From positions 1 through 44,997 of the IMG/VR virus record IMGVR_UViG_2917408641_000002: 44,997 nt of DNA; one strand, 5' to 3'. Below are positions 1 to 6,000 of the stretch, in pieces. A program made the position numbers. Each line of letters opens with the position of its first letter. Position 1 is the stretch's first letter. The stretch is from a virus. Its lineage: Duplodnaviria; Heunggongvirae; Uroviricota; Caudoviricetes.

Positions 1-3000
1 TTAACTTACTGATTTTAAAAAGCCTCTTAGGTCTCCTTGATGACCATGGGACATCATTGGGACATAATCTGCCAGCTTCTGATTCAGCATTGCGATCTGT
101 TCTGCATTACTGTCAGTCATCCATGCTCCGTATACATTGAACACCATCTGGGCACTTGCATGGCCCATCTGGCTGGCAATGAAACTTGGGTTTGCTCCAG
201 CAGATAATGACCAGCACGCATAAGTGTGTCGTGACTGGTATGCCTTTCGATACCTGATCCCCGCACGCTTAATGGCTGTTTCCCATGAGTCGCCAATGGA
301 ATCTACCTTGTAGATAAAACCTACCTGTTTGCTTTTTCTAACCACCTGGGGGTTAAATACGAAAGTACATTCATGATTCACTGAACGTCCATATTCACGT
401 AGTTGAACCTTGATGTGGTGCTGCTTACCCAGTCTTGTCATTTCAGCCTGATTTTTCAGGACACTGATAGCGGGCTGGATAAGATGCACAACCCTGTTTG
501 TACTTGCTTCAGTTTTAGGTAGAGTGAACTCACCGAGTTTCGTATAATTGCGCCTGATAGTAATTGTTCCTGCTTTCAGATCGATATCTTCCCAGGCCAG
601 GGAGACCAGCTCACCATGACGCATTCCTGTGTACACAGCCAATGACCACAGGTTTTTTGTCTGCTGATGCCGGCAAGCATCTATCAGGCGAATAAATTCG
701 TCACGAGTTAGCGGATCTGGCTCTGCCCTGGCTTTTTTAAGAGGCTTAATTCCCTCGAAGGGATTTGCTTCTAAGTAACCGTGATCTGCAGCAAACTGAA
801 ACATTCCCGCGATTGTCGTCATATAATAATTTACAGTAACGACGCTCCGTCCTCTTGCTGGTGCTTTGTCTTTCGTTGAATTCTGATATCCGGTCAGCAA
901 ATCTTTCCTGATATACAGCAATTCCTCTTTGGTCACCGTTGACACCAGTCTGCTACCTCCAATTTTCGGAATCATTGTTCTTGCAACGGACTCATAGCGA
1001 TTGAATGCATTTGCAGAGATTTCCATGCGTTTCAGATCCAGCCACTTTTCTTCAAGTTCTTTCACCGTAATTTCTTTTTTATTTACCCCAAAAGCCTTGA
1101 GGTTAGGAGAGTCAGGGAACTGCGCAGCGTAATCAAAGTTTCCTGTACGAATGGCAAAACATACAGATGTCCGCAGCTCTCCGGCGATCTTCCTGTTCTT
1201 GGCAGTGTCAGGGACACCAAGATTTTCCCTAACACGTTTACCTTTAAAATTAAACCAGATGCGTAATGTGCCACCGTGGTTTTCGACGCCTGTTGGATAT
1301 TTGACTTTATCCATCGATACCTCCAGACGCCCAAGAGCGATATGAGCTTACATATTTCATGGTATTAAATCACCTAGGTTGTTTGTTTTTCATTGAAGCG
1401 ACCCAGGCATCGATTGCTTTTCTGTTATACATACATTCGCTGGAAGGTTTTGGATTACCGTCAGGCGATACGTGAATATACTCTCTTCCTACCATCCAGC
1501 ATTCTTTCCGGGCCCGGAGAATTGTGCCTGGTTTGAGCCCGGTAATTGCGATAAGAACGCTTTCACAAACCCATTCATTGGGAGCCAGTTGAATCACATT
1601 GCCCATGCATTACCTCACACAACACTCAGCCCACGGCAGTGGCACCACACTTCAAACATTCGTTTCACAATTTCACGGCAGTAGAAACCGTCAACATCTC
1701 GCGTCAGGTCATAGCGATTGCCGTAACGCTGGCGTACCCATAGCTCAAACGCTTTATTCATTCTTTATTTCCTTTTCATGGCCCGTAATTTTTTCAGATG
1801 AGTTTCCTGTTCTGTTTCTGCCAGAATTTGTCGGTATTCCTGGTGATCGAGCCGTTCAAACAGTTCATTAAAATCGTTTATTTTTACCGACTGTGTTCGC
1901 CCATCCATTCTTCTGTACAACACAGTGTTATTTATGCAGCGAATAATTTTTACCGGGTAACCGGCACTGTCGGTATACAGTTGTCCCTGATTAATCAAAG
2001 CGAACATTTTTTCTCCTGCTCTCTGAATAGTGAGAACTTCAGAGCCGTATGTTTGTAGCGGGTTCAATACTGATAATTTCTGCTGAGATAAGCATCCCGG
2101 CAAGCCAGAGTTCTCCGGACAGGTCTTCATCCTGACATATCAGTTCGCCAATATTAATGGTGGCCATGATATCTGTTCCCCCTGTGCGCTCATCCTCGAC
2201 TTCTTCATAAGGCAGTGTTGCGTACAGGCTTTCAATAGCGCAACTGATAACATCCAGTCCGGTCAGATTGCCGCCGACAGTAACTTCGAATGTTTCGCGG
2301 TATTCCCATAACCCGAAAGTTAATCGAACGGTTTGTTTTGCCATGCGTCCGCATGACGTCAGATTCGGGTCATAGTTCATTATTTGCGGTTGAGTATTAT
2401 GGGTGTTCATCTGCTATTCCCTTAGCCCGGCGGCCTGCCGGGCGTATAAGTTATTTAACCTGGATAAATGGTGTATTAGCACCGCTGGCCATGTATTGCG
2501 GCAGTGTGCCGTTCCATTTATTGATGGCTTCCAGTTCCATAACTCCAGGGTTCTGGCGCAGAGCTTCACCGCGTAAACGAATAGCATCGGCTTCGGCCTG
2601 GGCTTTTGTGCGAATCGCATCAGCCTGTCCGGCAGCTTCCGCGCGCAGCATGTTGGCTTCCGCTTCGCGCTGTTTTACTTCCTGCTCGCGTTGCAGGGTT
2701 TTCTGGTTTGCCGTGACTTTGGCATTAATGCTGTCGATAACGGTTGGTGGGTACTCCGGTTTACCCACATATGAGAGGCTCATTACCTGAATACCGATGG
2801 ATGTCATTTCTGCCTGAATGTCTTTAAGAGCAGCATCCAGCAGTTCAGACTTGCCGCCGTCGATAAATTTGTCGGTGGTCATTTTGCTGGCCAGTCGGTT
2901 GAGTGCGTCGGCGATCTTCTGGCGCAGGTCGGTGTCGGTAATGTCATCCACGCCTTTGCGGTAAGTCTGAAACACCGTGGTAACTTTGGATGGATCAACT

Positions 3001-6000
3001 TTGTAGGCCACGCCGATGTGATAGCCGATGGTTGTACCGTCACTCATCTGGAAACTGAATGGTTCATCGTAGGTCTTCATTTGCTTGAAGGTAGGGAAGA
3101 TGTAAACCTCAGTATTCCAGCCAGTCCAGTAGCGACCAACACCGACCACCTCACCGACGCCTTTGTCGTCGCCCAGTTTATTTACCTTGATGCCAACATT
3201 ACCTGGTTCAACGCGATCGCACCCGACAAGGCTAATGGTCGGCAGAACAATGGCTAAAGCAAAAATAATTTTTTTCATCTTTTATCCTTAGTGAAAGAAA
3301 GACCCTTGTAAATGGCATAAATGCAGGGCGGGGTCAGAAACGCCAGTGCAAAGCCAGAAATAACTGCTATCGTATCCTTCATGGATATAAGGAACGGAAC
3401 GAGTAATCCGTAAATGCATGCGATAATTGCCAGTAAAATTACTATTGTGAAATACAGTCTCATTGGTCTGTGGTATCCCGATATTTTTAACCGACTGACA
3501 GCGCAATAAAGAGAATAATGATTTCAGTTAGTGTCAGCACTGTGGCAAGGATTAAAATCAGTTTTACTCTGTTTAATTCACGGTTGCTTTTCATATAAAC
3601 GGTTAGTAAAAAACGGAAGAATTATATTCTTCTTAATATTTAATGTGTCACTGGCGCTTCTGGCATACCATGAGTATTCAGATCGTGAATCATTTCATCC
3701 AGAAGGAGTTCAAGCCCTTCGCGCCCCATAGCAGAAACAATGAAACCATTATCAGGATCTGCGATGAGCATATTTTGATAGAGAAACAGAACTCGCCCCA
3801 TGCCTTCAGCTTCGCCATATTTTTCAATAAACCCCCATTCGACATGGTTTTGCAGGGCAATGCGAAGTGGCCCGGGGTAGATACTCAGGCAACCATGTTT
3901 CCCCTTGTAAATAACTGCGCGATCTGTAGTTCCGTTATCGTTAGGGATATCAATGGTGCCGTTCTTATACTCCTCTTCATTAATAAATACCGTTACATAC
4001 AGCCAGCGCCACTGTGCAACCTTCATATCGATAGAACAGTTTTCTAAAATCCCGGACTCATCGGCTTCTGCTAGGCACTGGAGAATGCTTAAACCGCGTG
4101 AATTTGGATAATCGTATTCACCGGCATCAAGACGTCGCACAGCTTCAACATAATCAATAGTAGTGTCACCAATCTTTATTCCATGCGTTGTTACTTCAGG
4201 TTTGAATTCTGAATTTTTCATAAAGTCTGTTCCGCTTGTTTATTTGCAGGTGGAATAATCGTGTAACCAGCCCTTTCCGCCATCCACAAAAAAGTGTCCA
4301 TACTGCCAACGAATTCATCGTCTAACAGATGCTTTGAATAAGTGACCTTGCCGTTTTCGATGGTGAGGAAGAGTCTAACTTTTTCATGAGTTATGTTTTG
4401 CTGTTTTTCTTTCATTTATTTATCTCCCATATGCTTTGCGCAAATACAGGTTGGCTATATGAAGATAAGAATCTCCATGTTGTGCAATGAGGCAGGCAGT
4501 TTTATACGATGCCTTATGTTTCAGGAAAGTCATAACATAATCTCCTGCGAATAAAGGTTGCAACAATCCCCGGCGATAAAACCGTAATAAACATTCAGGG
4601 AATATTTATTGTTATTGCGCTAATTCTTTTTCGGCAGCAGCTTTTGCATATTCACATGCAAAATTCAGAATTTCGCTGCCAAGTGTTTTTGTTTCGTGAT
4701 TACTTGACATATGTAATGCCTGTGTTGCATGCAATAAATGATAAACATTTACCGCAAATGAGTCCGGCTCCAGACAAATGCCTTCATAATCATCTTGTTG
4801 TGAGGTTGTTTCTGTCATTGCTCCTGAAGTGCATGCGAGCCTGTTTTTGACAATTCTCTTTCCTCTAATCACTATATCGGCAACATCTATTGCCTTTACA
4901 ACCTCCGGGAGAAGTTCCGGGTTTGTATAATCAAAGTCATCAACATGGAGAACAGTTATGTTTTCGAACTTTTTCATGGCTTCCTCAGCTGACTTATATG
5001 TTCTGCTATATAGCGAGTCTCAGAAGTGTTTTCATATTGAGACTGTTTCCGCAATGATTGATAAAAATGTTCGCATGTACCTTGAGGGGCGAAGCGGCGA
5101 TTATGTCACCATTGGTATTGGTTCTTCCGTAGAAGAGCTTTGATCTTACCCACCAATAGTGGACACAGGACTAAGTGAGTAAACTCTCAACCAGAGGTGA
5201 CTCATGACAAAACCAGTATCAATCAGCAAGAAGCCCCGTAAACAACATACGCCTGAATTTCGTAACGAAGCCCTGAAACTCGCTGAACGCATCGGTGTGG
5301 CCGCCGCAGCCCGTGAACTCAGCCTGTATGAATCTCAGCTTTATGCCTGGCGCAGTAAACAGCAGCAACAAATGAGTTCGTCAGAGCGCGAAAGCGAACT
5401 GGCCGCTGAAAATGTCCGCCTTAAACGACAACTGGCGGAGCAGGCTGAGGAACTGGCCATCCTCCAAAAGGCCGCGACATACTTCGCGAAGCGCCTGAAA
5501 TGAAGTATGTCTTCATCGAAAATCATCGGGCAGAGTTCAGCATCAAAGCGATGTGTCGTGTACTTCGGGTTGCCCGCAGCGGCTGGTATGTCTGGCTCAG
5601 GCGTCGTCACCAGATGAGCCTGCGCCAACATGTTTCGGCTCACCTGCGATACCGCTGTTCATAAGGCATTCTTTGAGGCAAAGCAGCGATACGGTGCTCC
5701 CCGCCTTGCTGACGAACTGCCGGAGTTCAATATTAAAACCATTGCCGCCAGCCTGCGTCGTCAGGGGCTGCGGGCGAAAGCCGGCCGGAAGTTCAGCCCG
5801 GTCAGCTACCGTGCACATGGCCTGCCCGTATTGGAGAATCTGCTGGAGCAGGACTTCAGCGCCAGCGGCCCGAACCAGAAGTGGGCGGGTGACATCACGT
5901 ACTTGCGTACCGATGAGGGCTGGTTGTATCTCGCAGTAGTCATCGACCTGTGGTCACGCGCCGTTATTGGCTGGTCGATGTCACCGCGAATGACAGCACA

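Follow-up and report, generated by a model that had tools for sequence, protein, structure and literature searches.

Proteins of the prohibitin/HflK/HflC clade face the periplasm or the intermembrane space and cage FtsH or m-AAA proteases; QmcA, another SPFH protein of Escherichia coli, faces the cytoplasm (PMC2636767). In SPFH-NfeD operons (E. coli ybbJ-qmcA, PDB 8z5g for QmcA-YbbJ; Pyrococcus PH1510/PH1511), a small membrane-protein gene lies directly upstream of the SPFH gene and is co-translated with it, and NfeD-SPFH gene fusions have been described (PMC2636767). SPFH genes are also found in phages; why an N4-like phage should carry one "remains unclear", according to a paper published in 2026 (PMC13239085). 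Our literature search found no functional study of the phage module described below.

The window, a stretch of 44,997 nucleotides from a virus of the Caudoviricetes (IMG/VR record IMGVR_UViG_2917408641_000002), contains a gene for an SPFH lipoprotein and a gene for a small two-TM hairpin protein (Table 1). As the first-pass annotation had placed it, the pair lies between xis and the repressor. The pair and the integrase, excisionase, and CI-like repressor genes, which are all in place, are on the minus strand. An IS3-family element parts the immunity region from the leftward genes. The order of the two genes, given in that annotation as the lipoprotein followed by the small protein, is reversed: on the minus strand, transcription runs from the 35-aa ORF through the hairpin gene to the SPFH gene. 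No promoter or terminator above chance was found bounding the pair, so its timing is deduced from gene position alone.

Table 1. Features of the window and of the hairpin-SPFH locus.
Feature	Position	Strand	Evidence or remark
Integrase	1-1314	-	
Excisionase	1370-1606	-	
SPFH (Band 7) lipoprotein gene, 275 aa, downstream partner	2451-3278	-	Pfam, phrog_200, AF2, Foldseek
Conserved C-terminal tail (NPGVMELEAINKWNGTLPQYM...PF..VK)	2454-2552	-	Residue conservation; low-confidence in monomer model
Long Ala/Glu/Arg-rich helix, residues 178-242	2553-2747	-	Single helix H178-242 in AF2 model
SPFH/Band 7 domain proper, residues 22-208	2655-3215	-	Pfam envelope; AF2
Signal peptide and lipobox (MKKIIFALAIVLPTISLVGC), Cys20 then Asp21-Arg22	3219-3278	-	Direct sequence reading
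Translational-coupling junction	3275-3289	-	Sequence
Two-TM hairpin gene, 62 aa, upstream partner	3275-3463	-	ORF; phrog_1130
35-aa hydrophobic ORF	3487-3594	-	Probably not a gene
IS3-family element	about 5137-6400	+	
CI-like HTH+S24 repressor	6961-7692	-	

The lipoprotein ORF proposed in the first-pass annotation is borne out, as are its SPFH-like domain, by both profile and structure, and its long coiled-coil, which is a single helix in the AF2 model. The N-terminus consists of MKK, a hydrophobic stretch, and the lipobox LVGC. The protein matches Pfam Band_7 (E=9.6e-31, 107.6 bits against a cut-off of 23.6) and belongs to phrog_200 ("lipoprotein"; PHROGs, E=1.8e-112). Its AF2 monomer model has a mean pLDDT of 76, with a beta-sheet plus helices at pLDDT 80-94 across most of the domain and values below 50 for residues 249-275. 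In a Foldseek search of the PDB, the best match of the model was HflC (7vhq_G, E=2.9e-13), and PHB2 (8rrh_B), HflK, erlin, and stomatin were also found; the model aligns at full length with the cage subunits HflC, HflK, PHB1/2, erlin, and stomatin (E=1e-13 to 1e-11). The top sequence-profile matches in the PDB and NCBIfam are prohibitin-2, HflK, and HflC. These HMM matches come from the long-helix stretch, and in sequence the protein resembles HflK/C weakly, scoring 25 bits where the NCBIfam cut-offs are 134-159. The helix corresponds to the coiled-coil wall of SPFH cages. In the C-terminal tail, close homologues all keep W255, G257, and P260, and the W and G of the KW.G motif are invariant in 29 sequences of about 40% identity, making the tail a candidate cap or oligomerization element. 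Taken together, sequence and model give this protein a full-length SPFH architecture, in which a lipoprotein signal is followed by the SPFH domain, the long wall helix, and the conserved C-terminal tail. Of the 120 close homologues, 107 have the lipobox, with Asp at position +2 in 102 and Glu in 5; a lipobox-type Cys occurs in 114 of the 142 distant representatives, many distant homologues having Ser, Thr, or Gly at +2. Asp at +2 is an inner-membrane retention signal in E. coli. The gene is under purifying selection (dN/dS 0.04-0.07).

The upstream gene encodes, as claimed, a 62-aa two-TM protein with an ATGA start-stop overlap. It belongs to phrog_1130 ("membrane protein", E=2.5e-23), which PHROGs assigns to the category "moron, auxiliary metabolic gene and host takeover"; no match was found in Pfam, NCBIfam, or PADLOC, and PGAP labels it hypothetical in E. 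coli genomes. Both termini are predicted to lie inside (N-in/C-in); the two helices are joined by a short periplasmic turn (...YGLLVP23FLIS27MKDTIAVISG37...), and the C-terminal tail is basic. P23, S27, and G37 are invariant across 28 hairpin sequences of 15-37% identity, and the mean net charge is +0.8 at the N-terminus, -0.9 in the loop, and +2.4 in the C-tail. This gene is also under purifying selection (dN/dS 0.12-0.38). At the junction, a good Shine-Dalgarno sequence of the SPFH gene, AAGGA (3285-3289), lies inside the hairpin gene and is followed by a 6-nt spacer and by ATGA (3278-3275), where the TGA stop of the hairpin gene overlaps the ATG start of the SPFH gene. The same +3 overlap was found in most related loci.

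The hairpin gene adjoins the SPFH gene in every close locus for which upstream sequence is available, in P88, RCS47, Cyrano/SSU5-type phages, and N4, and in about 64 of 80 divergent IMG/VR viral contigs. In the reverse test, a Band_7 gene directly follows the divergent hairpin gene in 4 of 4 cases. The coupling is far beyond chance, and the small gene is conserved with the lipoprotein in prophages and far beyond them. Natural in-frame fusions were found in 16 of 142 cluster representatives and in P0003, with hairpin, signal anchor, lipobox, and SPFH in one reading frame; therefore, the topology is fixed, with the C-terminus of the hairpin cytoplasmic and the SPFH domain outside. The hairpin and SPFH genes thus form a conserved two-gene module, co-occurring or fused across very distant phages. 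The SPFH protein is 62-92% identical between unrelated coliphage lineages. Phage lineages that share 79-92% identity in the mature SPFH part have hairpins that are only 20-34% identical, and hairpin and SPFH part recombine separately. Because the hairpin diverges and recombines apart from the mature SPFH part, no tight, specific protein-protein interface is evident between them.

The 35-aa ORF, which had been put forward as a possible hydrophobic peptide of the same operon, is not supported as a gene or as a member of the module. It has no Shine-Dalgarno sequence, has no family match in Pfam, PHROGs, NCBIfam, or PADLOC, and is not called by PGAP. It was found only in near-identical phiP27-like loci, in one variant its ATG is changed to ATA, and its pN/pS of 0.73 is indistinguishable from those of the other two frames (0.91 and 1.27). 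It is probably not a gene and lies outside the conserved module.

The module is not lambdoid-specific. The first-pass annotation had set it in a lambdoid context and had not considered it a standard annotated phage function; its two proteins belong to established PHROGs, and the SPFH gene was found in 382 cultured-phage records, several of which mislabel it as "serine protease". Carriers are temperate as well as virulent. The strictly virulent ones include coliphage N4 (gp19/gp20), rV5-like, phiEa21-4-like, and crAss-like phages, and the module is also found in P2-like, P1-like, and SSU5-like phages. It is common in virulent phages, environmental phages, and phage-plasmids. Early regions of P2-like and lambdoid phages carry it, and three lambdoid phages of Pseudomonas have the pair on the cI strand, downstream of that gene, a position that would also allow rexAB-like expression in lysogens. 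In N4, the module is located beside the RNAP2 gene, among left-end genes that we take to be early/middle genes, and the adjacent gp18 is annotated "similar to P22 gp17".

We tentatively read the pair as a two-component, HflK/C- or prohibitin-like phage membrane scaffold, that is, a periplasmic cage made early and directed at the host, with an FtsH-type client the likeliest. The cage-plus-hairpin architecture is probable; a host-directed rather than anti-phage role is somewhat favored; FtsH specifically as the client is doubtful. Oligomer, localization, expression, and client are inferred from family behavior. The lipoprotein would be exported, lipidated at Cys20, kept in the inner membrane by the Asp at +2, and assembled, in the HflK/C orientation, into a ring or dome standing on the periplasmic side of that membrane; to our knowledge, every structurally solved full-length SPFH protein oligomerizes in such a form. 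The membrane-spanning part would come from the hairpin, at about one copy for each SPFH subunit, and the invariant Pro...Ser...Gly turn of the hairpin would sit at the periplasmic membrane surface beneath the SPFH domain. Made in early (pre-replicative) transcription, the module may wall off patches of the inner membrane. The target would most likely be a conserved host inner-membrane component and not another phage, an FtsH-type membrane protease or quality-control machine being the best candidate; control of such a client could alter how fast membrane or phage proteins turn over and keep the membrane of the infected cell working until lysis. An action on host membrane proteases would be a reasonable idea, against which stand the single SPFH gene, the lipid anchor in place of a TM helix, and the lack of a direct FtsH link.

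It is unlikely that the lipoprotein, which would face the periplasm, and the hairpin act at the inner membrane to stop incoming phages from forming channels or passing in their DNA, whether expressed by the prophage or in early lytic infection, after the model of T4 Imm/Sp, P22 SieA, and the T5 Llp/Cor lipoproteins. The envelope location of a lipoprotein with a small inner-membrane protein would fit such superinfection exclusion, as would the immunity-proximal leftward position, the same-strand location downstream of cI in the three Pseudomonas phages, and the PHROGs category of the hairpin. The presence in N4 is compatible with it too, since virulent phages (T4, T5) can have early-expressed exclusion, and N4 gp18 bears its P22 gp17 annotation. 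However, exclusion proteins against rival phages usually diversify, and the very strong purifying selection on the SPFH gene and its 62-92% identity across unrelated phages of the same hosts are unlike fast-evolving exclusion or defence genes. The module has no match in PADLOC-DB, our literature search found no paper tying SPFH to exclusion, and a caged patch is only part of the membrane, so that a block of entry everywhere is hard to picture. The wide distribution, including virulent phages, together with this selection speaks against a moron for exclusion or defence that is specific to lysogens and favors a host-directed function in lytic development; superinfection exclusion is possible and less favored than that function.

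The module might instead act as a general membrane stabilizer that has no particular protein as its client, in the manner of flotillin or PspA-associated SPFH proteins, keeping inner-membrane order, fluidity, and proton-motive force in a long productive phase and preventing premature holin triggering or leakage. This too seems improbable, though the architectural evidence (Pfam, AF2, Foldseek) serves it equally, bacterial SPFH proteins have repeatedly been linked to membrane-stress tolerance (PMC8581546, PMC10434171, PMC11222466), and the carriers have many lifestyles. The weak constraint on the hairpin, with Pro, Ser, and Gly alone invariant, and its free recombination with the mature SPFH part would fit a lipid or topology role better than a lock-and-key one, but an SPFH dN/dS of 0.04-0.07 suggests a specific conserved binding partner over bulk lipid. 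There is little to recommend a role in lysis timing, with a class-II-holin-like or antiholin-like hairpin whose oligomerization the SPFH lipoprotein would regulate. Class II holins have two TMs, an N-in/C-in topology, and a basic tail, and the hairpin resembles them in size, topology, and charged C-terminus; stomatin-type SPFH proteins, moreover, regulate channels (PMC3433786). Yet the pair is in no lysis cassette among the loci examined, its neighbors being early, regulatory, or accessory; the hairpin has no holin-family match in Pfam or PHROGs, and natural fusions to a lipoprotein precursor are hard to square with a free pore-former. Scarcely credible is a lysogenic-conversion or virulence lipoprotein aimed at the animal host, such as a vesicle-borne TLR2 agonist. 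The parallel, likened by description, is Pasteurella multocida PM0222, a prophage-encoded HflK/C-like protein of 25-35 kDa that occurs in outer-membrane vesicles and signals through TLR1/2, and whose deletion attenuates virulence (PMC9872710). The protein in the window is predicted to be a triacylated lipoprotein, and prophages of the phiP27/Stx type carry it; however, any lipoprotein activates TLR2, and an animal-directed role would be senseless in the virulent and environmental phages and phage-plasmids where the module is common. The hairpin-SPFH pair is a good experimental target.

Among phages, the described counterparts (N4 gp19-gp20, phiP27 L05, PHROG 200 with PHROG 1130) do not differ in kind from the pair in the window. 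N4 gp20 is a true family member, 62% identical to the SPFH protein in the window and with a lipobox; N4 gp19 (YGFLLPSMVSALDS), a canonical hairpin, overlaps the gp20 start; and phiP27 L05, also a true member, is 98.5% identical. Beyond phages, the best structural and profile matches are E. coli HflK/HflC-FtsH (PDB 7vhp/7vhq/7wi3/9cz2) and mitochondrial PHB1/2, which share the N-terminal membrane anchor, SPFH domain, long coiled-coil wall helix, and C-terminal cap segment; the SPFH domain of HflK/C lies outside the cytoplasmic membrane, as that of the phage protein would. In contrast to HflK/C, the phage anchor is a lipobox lipid and not a TM helix, one SPFH gene with an extra two-TM hairpin replaces the HflK+HflC pair, and the protein is phage-encoded, with an NCBIfam equivalog score (25 against 134 bits) far below the cut-off. 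The SPFH-NfeD operons follow the same logic of a co-translated small upstream gene, and QmcA is a fold match (Foldseek, E=9e-7). The phage hairpin, at 55-85 aa, differs in having no NfeD/OB-fold domain and no Pfam match, and its SPFH partner is predicted to be exported, unlike the cytoplasm-facing QmcA.

T4 Imm and Sp, P22 SieA, T5 Llp, phi80 Cor, and lambda RexAB are likewise small proteins of the inner membrane and/or lipoproteins, produced early or by the prophage, and the pair neighbors the immunity region much as rexAB or sieB do. We know of no SPFH protein among them; no sequence or fold relation to them was found, the PADLOC search giving no match, and the conservation of the phage SPFH protein is much higher than is typical of exclusion genes. 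Lambda CIII, a 54-aa cytoplasmic amphipathic peptide, inhibits FtsH as a competitive substrate and is encoded at the same early-left (PL) operon position in a lambdoid phage. It has no structural relation to the SPFH module, which is also found in phages without a lysogeny decision; if the FtsH hypothesis is true, the two would share a target.

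The 62-aa and 275-aa ORFs proposed in the first-pass annotation are real, as is their genomic context. All of these genes lie on the minus strand, so that the order given there is reversed: the gene for the small two-TM protein, herein referred to as the hairpin protein, precedes the gene for the SPFH lipoprotein. The ATGA at 3278-3275 is both the stop of the hairpin gene and the start of the SPFH gene, and the Shine-Dalgarno sequence of the SPFH gene (AAGGA, 6 nt 5' of the start) is located within the hairpin gene. The 35-aa ORF, raised in the same annotation as a possible further peptide, was dropped from the module. 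As a third component it was rejected, having no Shine-Dalgarno sequence and no family match and being omitted by PGAP. Intact copies occur only in near-identical phiP27-like loci, and the ORF is lacking in every locus with a different upstream context; one variant has ATA in place of the start codon, and the pN/pS of 0.73 is no better than that of the other two frames.

Features of the window around the hairpin-SPFH pair, in leftward order from the immunity region
Feature	Position	Strand	Remark
cro-like gene	7729-7956		window immunity region
CI-like repressor	6961-7692	-	HTH_3 + Peptidase_S24
HTH protein	6369-6857	-	
IS3-family element	about 5137-6400	+	absent from phiP27
Three function-unassigned genes	4612-4977, 4218-4415, 3640-4221	-	
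35-aa ORF	3487-3594	-	
62-aa hairpin ORF	3275-3463	-	
275-aa SPFH ORF	2451-3278	-	
DUF5406 gene	2039-2410	-	
DUF4222 gene	1765-2130	-	listed as 121-aa ORF
Excisionase	1370-1606	-	
Integrase	1-1314	-	

The window is a phiP27-like lambdoid prophage. Over positions 2300-3700 it shares 96.6% identity with phage phiP27, and up to 97.2% with E. coli chromosomes. Homology with phiP27 ends at about window position 5065, and the immunity region (HTH gene, CI-like and cro-like genes) is unlike that of phiP27; thus, a mosaic boundary is located there. The IS3-family element contains orfA (5204-5503, HTH_Tnp_1) and orfB (5630-6355, rve) between the terminal inverted repeats TGATCTTACCCAC.../...GTGGGTAGGATCA. 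It separates the leftward early genes from the immunity region, is oriented antisense to leftward transcription, and may have a polar effect on how the SPFH module is expressed in this particular prophage. On the other side of the module, the DUF4222 ORF (121 aa) shares 92 nt with the DUF5406 gene. Its family match begins only at residue 42 and PGAP calls a shorter DUF4222 gene in related genomes, so the real start is probably an internal ATG.

The SPFH fold claimed for the 275-aa protein holds, with Pfam and AF2 plus Foldseek in agreement. The protein matches Band_7 (Pfam: PF01145) over residues 22-208 with 107.6 bits against a cut-off of 23.6 (E=9.6e-31), as well as phrog_200, named 'lipoprotein' (E=1.8e-112). 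The phrog_200 profile has about 80 additional N-terminal positions, consistent with the presence of fused members. The AF2 model (mean pLDDT 76) includes the SPFH beta-sheet with helices, a single unbroken helix (residues 178-242), and a C-terminal tail modelled with low confidence. Near full-length Foldseek matches (~260-300 columns, E=1e-13 to 1e-11) were found to HflC, HflK, prohibitin-1/2, erlin-1/2, and stomatin, and weaker ones to flotillin, major vault protein, and QmcA. In profile searches against PDB and NCBIfam the best relatives were prohibitin-2, HflK, and HflC, all far under the family cut-offs; the NCBIfam equivalog scores were 25.1 bits vs. 134.4 for HflC and 23.3 vs. 159.4 for HflK. 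Kinship in fold and profile, together with these sub-threshold scores, thus indicates an SPFH protein of the HflK/C-prohibitin type and not an orthologue of HflK or HflC. The wall helix of the model and the conservation of the C-terminal tail suggest that the protein would assemble into large membrane-attached rings or cages.

The N-terminus of the SPFH lipoprotein, MKK-IIFALAIVLPTIS-LVGC, is a classical lipoprotein signal. A lipobox, defined by the pattern [LVI][ASTVI][GAS]C after an n-region and an h-region, has been retained by 107 of 120 close homologues and by 114 of 142 distant ones. Asp is found at +2 in 102 of the 107 lipobox-bearing close homologues; this residue at +2 is the inner-membrane retention signal of E. 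coli. The protein is a predicted Lgt/LspA substrate and would be lipid-anchored, and the signal peptide with its lipobox, Asp+2, and the topology of natural fusions (see below) all predict an inner-membrane protein with its SPFH domain in the periplasm. The dN/dS of the SPFH gene is 0.04-0.07. At the protein level, identity is 62% between N4 (gp20) and the lambdoid prophage of the window and 91-92% among the lambdoid, P2-like, and P1-like copies.

The hairpin protein matches phrog_1130, named 'membrane protein' (E=2.5e-23), and has no match in Pfam, NCBIfam, or PADLOC-DB. Assignments to NfeD, holins, or another Pfam or NCBIfam family were rejected for lack of matches. The protein has two hydrophobic helices with a short polar turn between them and ends in a 10-residue tail. 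In an alignment of 28 homologues with 15-37% identity, Pro23, Ser27, and Gly37 are invariant, within the motif G-x-x-x-P-x-[LM]-[IVF]-S-[AS]-x-[SD]-x-x-x-V-x-x-G. The mean net charges of the N-terminus (+0.8), turn (-0.9), and tail (+2.4), read by the positive-inside rule, predict an N-in/C-in topology with the conserved turn at the periplasmic surface. The dN/dS of 0.12-0.38 indicates a real gene.

The pairing of a small two-TM gene with the lipoprotein gene across prophages, which the first-pass annotation proposed as a check, is conserved when tested in both directions. The hairpin gene abuts the SPFH gene in P88 (P2-like), RCS47 (P1-like), Cyrano (SSU5-like phage-plasmid), and the virulent phage N4 (gp19/gp20), and adjoins it in all ~90 close IMG/VR and genome loci with upstream DNA. 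Most junctions show the 4-base ATGA overlap (stop-minus-start offset +3); others have a 4-nt gap or an overlap of 20 nt. In a set of 80 divergent viral contigs with SPFH proteins 40-50% identical to the representative P0172 (itself ~40% identical to the window protein), the canonical hairpin ORF was flagged in 65, one a likely false positive. The other 15 have a different short TM ORF there (7 contigs), a truncated hairpin (1 contig), or none (7 contigs). In the reverse test, all four divergent hairpin genes, from prophages of Vibrio parahaemolyticus, P. aeruginosa, and P. putida and from T4-like phage contigs (metagenomes), directly precede a Band_7 gene.

In 16 of the 142 full-length representatives of 50%-identity clusters, the hairpin, a basic linker, a signal-anchor, the lipobox, and the SPFH domain are fused in one reading frame. 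In addition, P0003 (347 aa), from a P1-like lineage and encoded on a 94-kb contig that is probably a P1-like phage-plasmid, is a recent natural fusion. In RCS47 (L003 4775-5011 / 3967-4794) the hairpin ORF runs 20 nt into the SPFH gene in another frame; P0003 is fused via a frameshift relative to RCS47, with the in-frame junction …KLINEK-TLISAAI…LTGC|DRVEPG. Judged from their sequences, natural fusions fix the predicted topology independently and suggest 1:1 production of the hairpin and SPFH proteins.

Several loci depart from the usual arrangement or its annotation. The hairpin gene of RCS47 is unannotated in the record. In Shigella flexneri SFBU1023 (L086 2212-3000) and E. coli ECMA0423 (L087), an insertion of ~790 bp with IS1 InsA-like ORFs separates the hairpin and SPFH genes, and translational coupling is broken in both genomes. 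In Candidatus Symbiopectobacterium endolongispinus (L095 2816-3828), both genes contain in-frame stops, which indicates a module decaying in an endosymbiont genome. Two phages have very distant SPFH lipoproteins (25-38% identity): in Caulobacter phage Karma (gp183-gp182, L180 1655-2828) a 116-aa multi-TM protein overlaps the SPFH start, and in Pseudomonas phage Clew-1 (L179 1722-2774) a 72-aa protein with one C-terminal TM precedes the SPFH gene. A small membrane partner with a phage SPFH protein may be a broader rule than the canonical hairpin.

Comparison of the window with P88 and RCS47 points to recombination inside the module. Over the mature SPFH coding part (~3215-2485) DNA identity is 78-95%, whereas the hairpin gene, signal peptide, and final codons are no more alike than background, and the hairpins themselves are only 20-29% identical. 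These contrasting identities indicate that the hairpin and signal peptide were exchanged independently of the mature SPFH part, which weakens any claim of a tight, specific interface. Possibly, the Pro-Ser-Gly turn and the general topology are all that the hairpin-SPFH contact requires; it is also possible that the hairpin acts with the signal peptide or lipid anchor, for instance in insertion or retention, and not with the SPFH domain.

The SPFH family comprises 217 clusters at E<=1e-30 and was found in 382 cultured-phage records; two pattern scans of IMG/VR yielded 374 and 347 stretches. The module is present in 691 of 5426 complete E. coli genomes (about 13%), on chromosomes and plasmids, and a separate scan of genome contigs with very narrow patterns gave 12 loci. 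The module has spread horizontally through at least five coliphage lineages. The first-pass interpretation thus stands for the fold and the conserved pair but not for a lambdoid-specific feature, since the carriers include virulent N4 and P2-like and P1-like phages. In the records AJ298298, LC5678xx, MH160767, and FO818745, the SPFH gene is variously named 'serine protease', 'putative transposase', or 'peptidyl-tRNA hydrolase'; none of these names fits the domain content, and they look like propagated misannotations. No functional study of the phage SPFH family was found in the literature searched, and a 2026 paper on an N4-like phage calls the reason for the presence of the SPFH gene unclear (PMC13239085).

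A consensus scan for promoters and terminators gave no excess over shuffled sequence and none usefully placed on the minus strand, and a moron cassette with its own promoter or terminator found no support in it. Two stem-loops flank the module, both only marginally better than shuffles. The upstream one (3608-3632, minus strand; AT-rich 7-bp stem, then CG and T6; -4.9 kcal/mol, z=-2.2) directly follows the stop of the 193-aa gene (3640-4221), has a T-run of varying length among loci, and may be a weak terminator. The downstream one (2425-2443, minus strand) has a 7-bp all-GC stem and a 5-nt loop, begins 8 nt past the SPFH stop, and is without a U-tract; the surrounding 41 nt (2412-2452) have a folding energy of -17.1 kcal/mol (z=-1.7). 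This stem-loop could either stabilise the mRNA or act as a weak terminator ahead of the DUF5406 gene. With no regulatory sites above chance, expression timing was inferred from gene position only. The module is located in the early-left region of the window and phiP27 and in the early operon of the P2-like phage. In N4 it lies in the left-end block of early/middle genes, just downstream of the RNAP2 gene. In three Pseudomonas lambdoid phages the pair is downstream of cI on the same strand, a position that would also permit the lysogen to express the pair in the manner of rexAB.

SPFH proteins (prohibitin, stomatin, flotillin, HflK/C) are universal membrane organisers whose cage function is debated, and SPFH cage structures have been solved only since 2022. 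To our knowledge, all full-length SPFH proteins with solved structures assemble into a ring or dome. The cages of HflK/C and prohibitin enclose proteases of the FtsH family. The phage SPFH lipoprotein would, like HflK/C, form a ring or dome on the periplasmic face of the inner membrane, the hairpin would be its integral-membrane component, and together they would enclose membrane patches. Carriage by both virulent and temperate phages argues against a lysogeny-specific role. The strong conservation of the SPFH protein looks like the constraint of a conserved host component and not like an arms race with other phages. Virulent carriage, conservation, and HflK/C-prohibitin kinship together make a host-directed scaffold at work in lytic development the preferred reading, and an FtsH-type client its likeliest single target; we put this forward tentatively, at somewhat less than even chances. 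FtsH itself as the client is rather doubtful.

Superinfection exclusion would direct the pair against other phages. In N4, gp18 (L178 1907-2221), immediately upstream of gp19-gp20, is annotated 'similar to P22 gp17', and P22 gene 17 is associated with escaping prophage exclusion; the annotation may hint at a role of the region in phage-phage conflict. The SPFH protein, the hairpin, the 35-aa ORF, and three neighbours have no match in PADLOC-DB 2.0.0 at E<=0.1. This result and the strong SPFH conservation do not favour the defence role suggested in the first-pass annotation, and we consider exclusion unlikely. Stabilisation of the membrane without any client is about equally unlikely. A role in lysis timing would agree with the predicted two-TM N-in/C-in topology that the hairpin shares with class II holins and pinholins; such an identity was rejected, as none of the loci examined has lysis genes beside the pair and there is no Pfam or PHROGs holin match, and the reading is very improbable. 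A virulence lipoprotein may have a precedent in the Pasteurella prophage 'HflK/C-like' protein PM0222 (OAZ06802.1), which is reported to be a vesicle-borne TLR1/2 agonist (PMC9872710). Since virulent phages also carry the module, a host-virulence factor is the least credible of these readings.

The host-directed scaffold can be extended to a bolder form, which we regard as quite unlikely: in many lineages, phages would set up a caged compartment of their own at the outer surface of the host inner membrane by means of a 'split prohibitin', a general takeover device. Its parts would be the lipoprotein SPFH ring and the hairpin, derived in some lineages from one precursor cut by signal peptidase II. 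The cage would lock away or disable FtsH-type quality control or, alternatively, protect the membrane of the infected cell against pore-forming abortive-infection effectors and against superinfecting phages. If true, this would be the first functionally defined viral SPFH cage, with a new anchoring mode. A viral SPFH cage should have one job. Its client would show the purpose of such cages and reveal the function of a gene that hundreds of phage genomes mislabel as 'serine protease' or 'lipoprotein'; if FtsH is the target, phages would have a second way of acting on this protease, with no relation to that of lambda CIII. The module is compact (one SPFH gene and one 60-aa partner) and present in genetically tractable N4, which makes it a good experimental target. 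What we describe is a lipoprotein SPFH protein with a hairpin partner, widespread in phages; no surprising mechanism is demonstrated.

Among known systems, a Rz/Rz1 spanin pair consists of an inner-membrane protein with a periplasmic coiled coil and a short Pro-rich outer-membrane lipoprotein, encoded in a lysis cassette. This identity was rejected for the module, which has a 275-aa SPFH lipoprotein with Asp+2, a partner without a periplasmic domain, and no lysis cassette. HflK and HflC, which form a hetero-oligomer, are encoded by two adjacent paralogous genes for TM-anchored SPFH proteins, whereas the phage module has one SPFH gene and a lipobox anchor; the neighbours of this gene in the window are the hairpin and DUF5406 genes. 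With SPFH-NfeD operons (ybbJ-qmcA) it shares a co-directional adjoining membrane-protein gene, which in the phage module overlaps the SPFH gene at the ATGA and recurs in related loci, but the phage partner is without the NfeD C-terminal OB-fold domain. The module thus resembles the SPFH-plus-partner operons ybbJ-qmcA and HflK-HflC and belongs to neither. Its true family, function unassigned, is that of N4 gp19-gp20 and PHROGs 200 and 1130.
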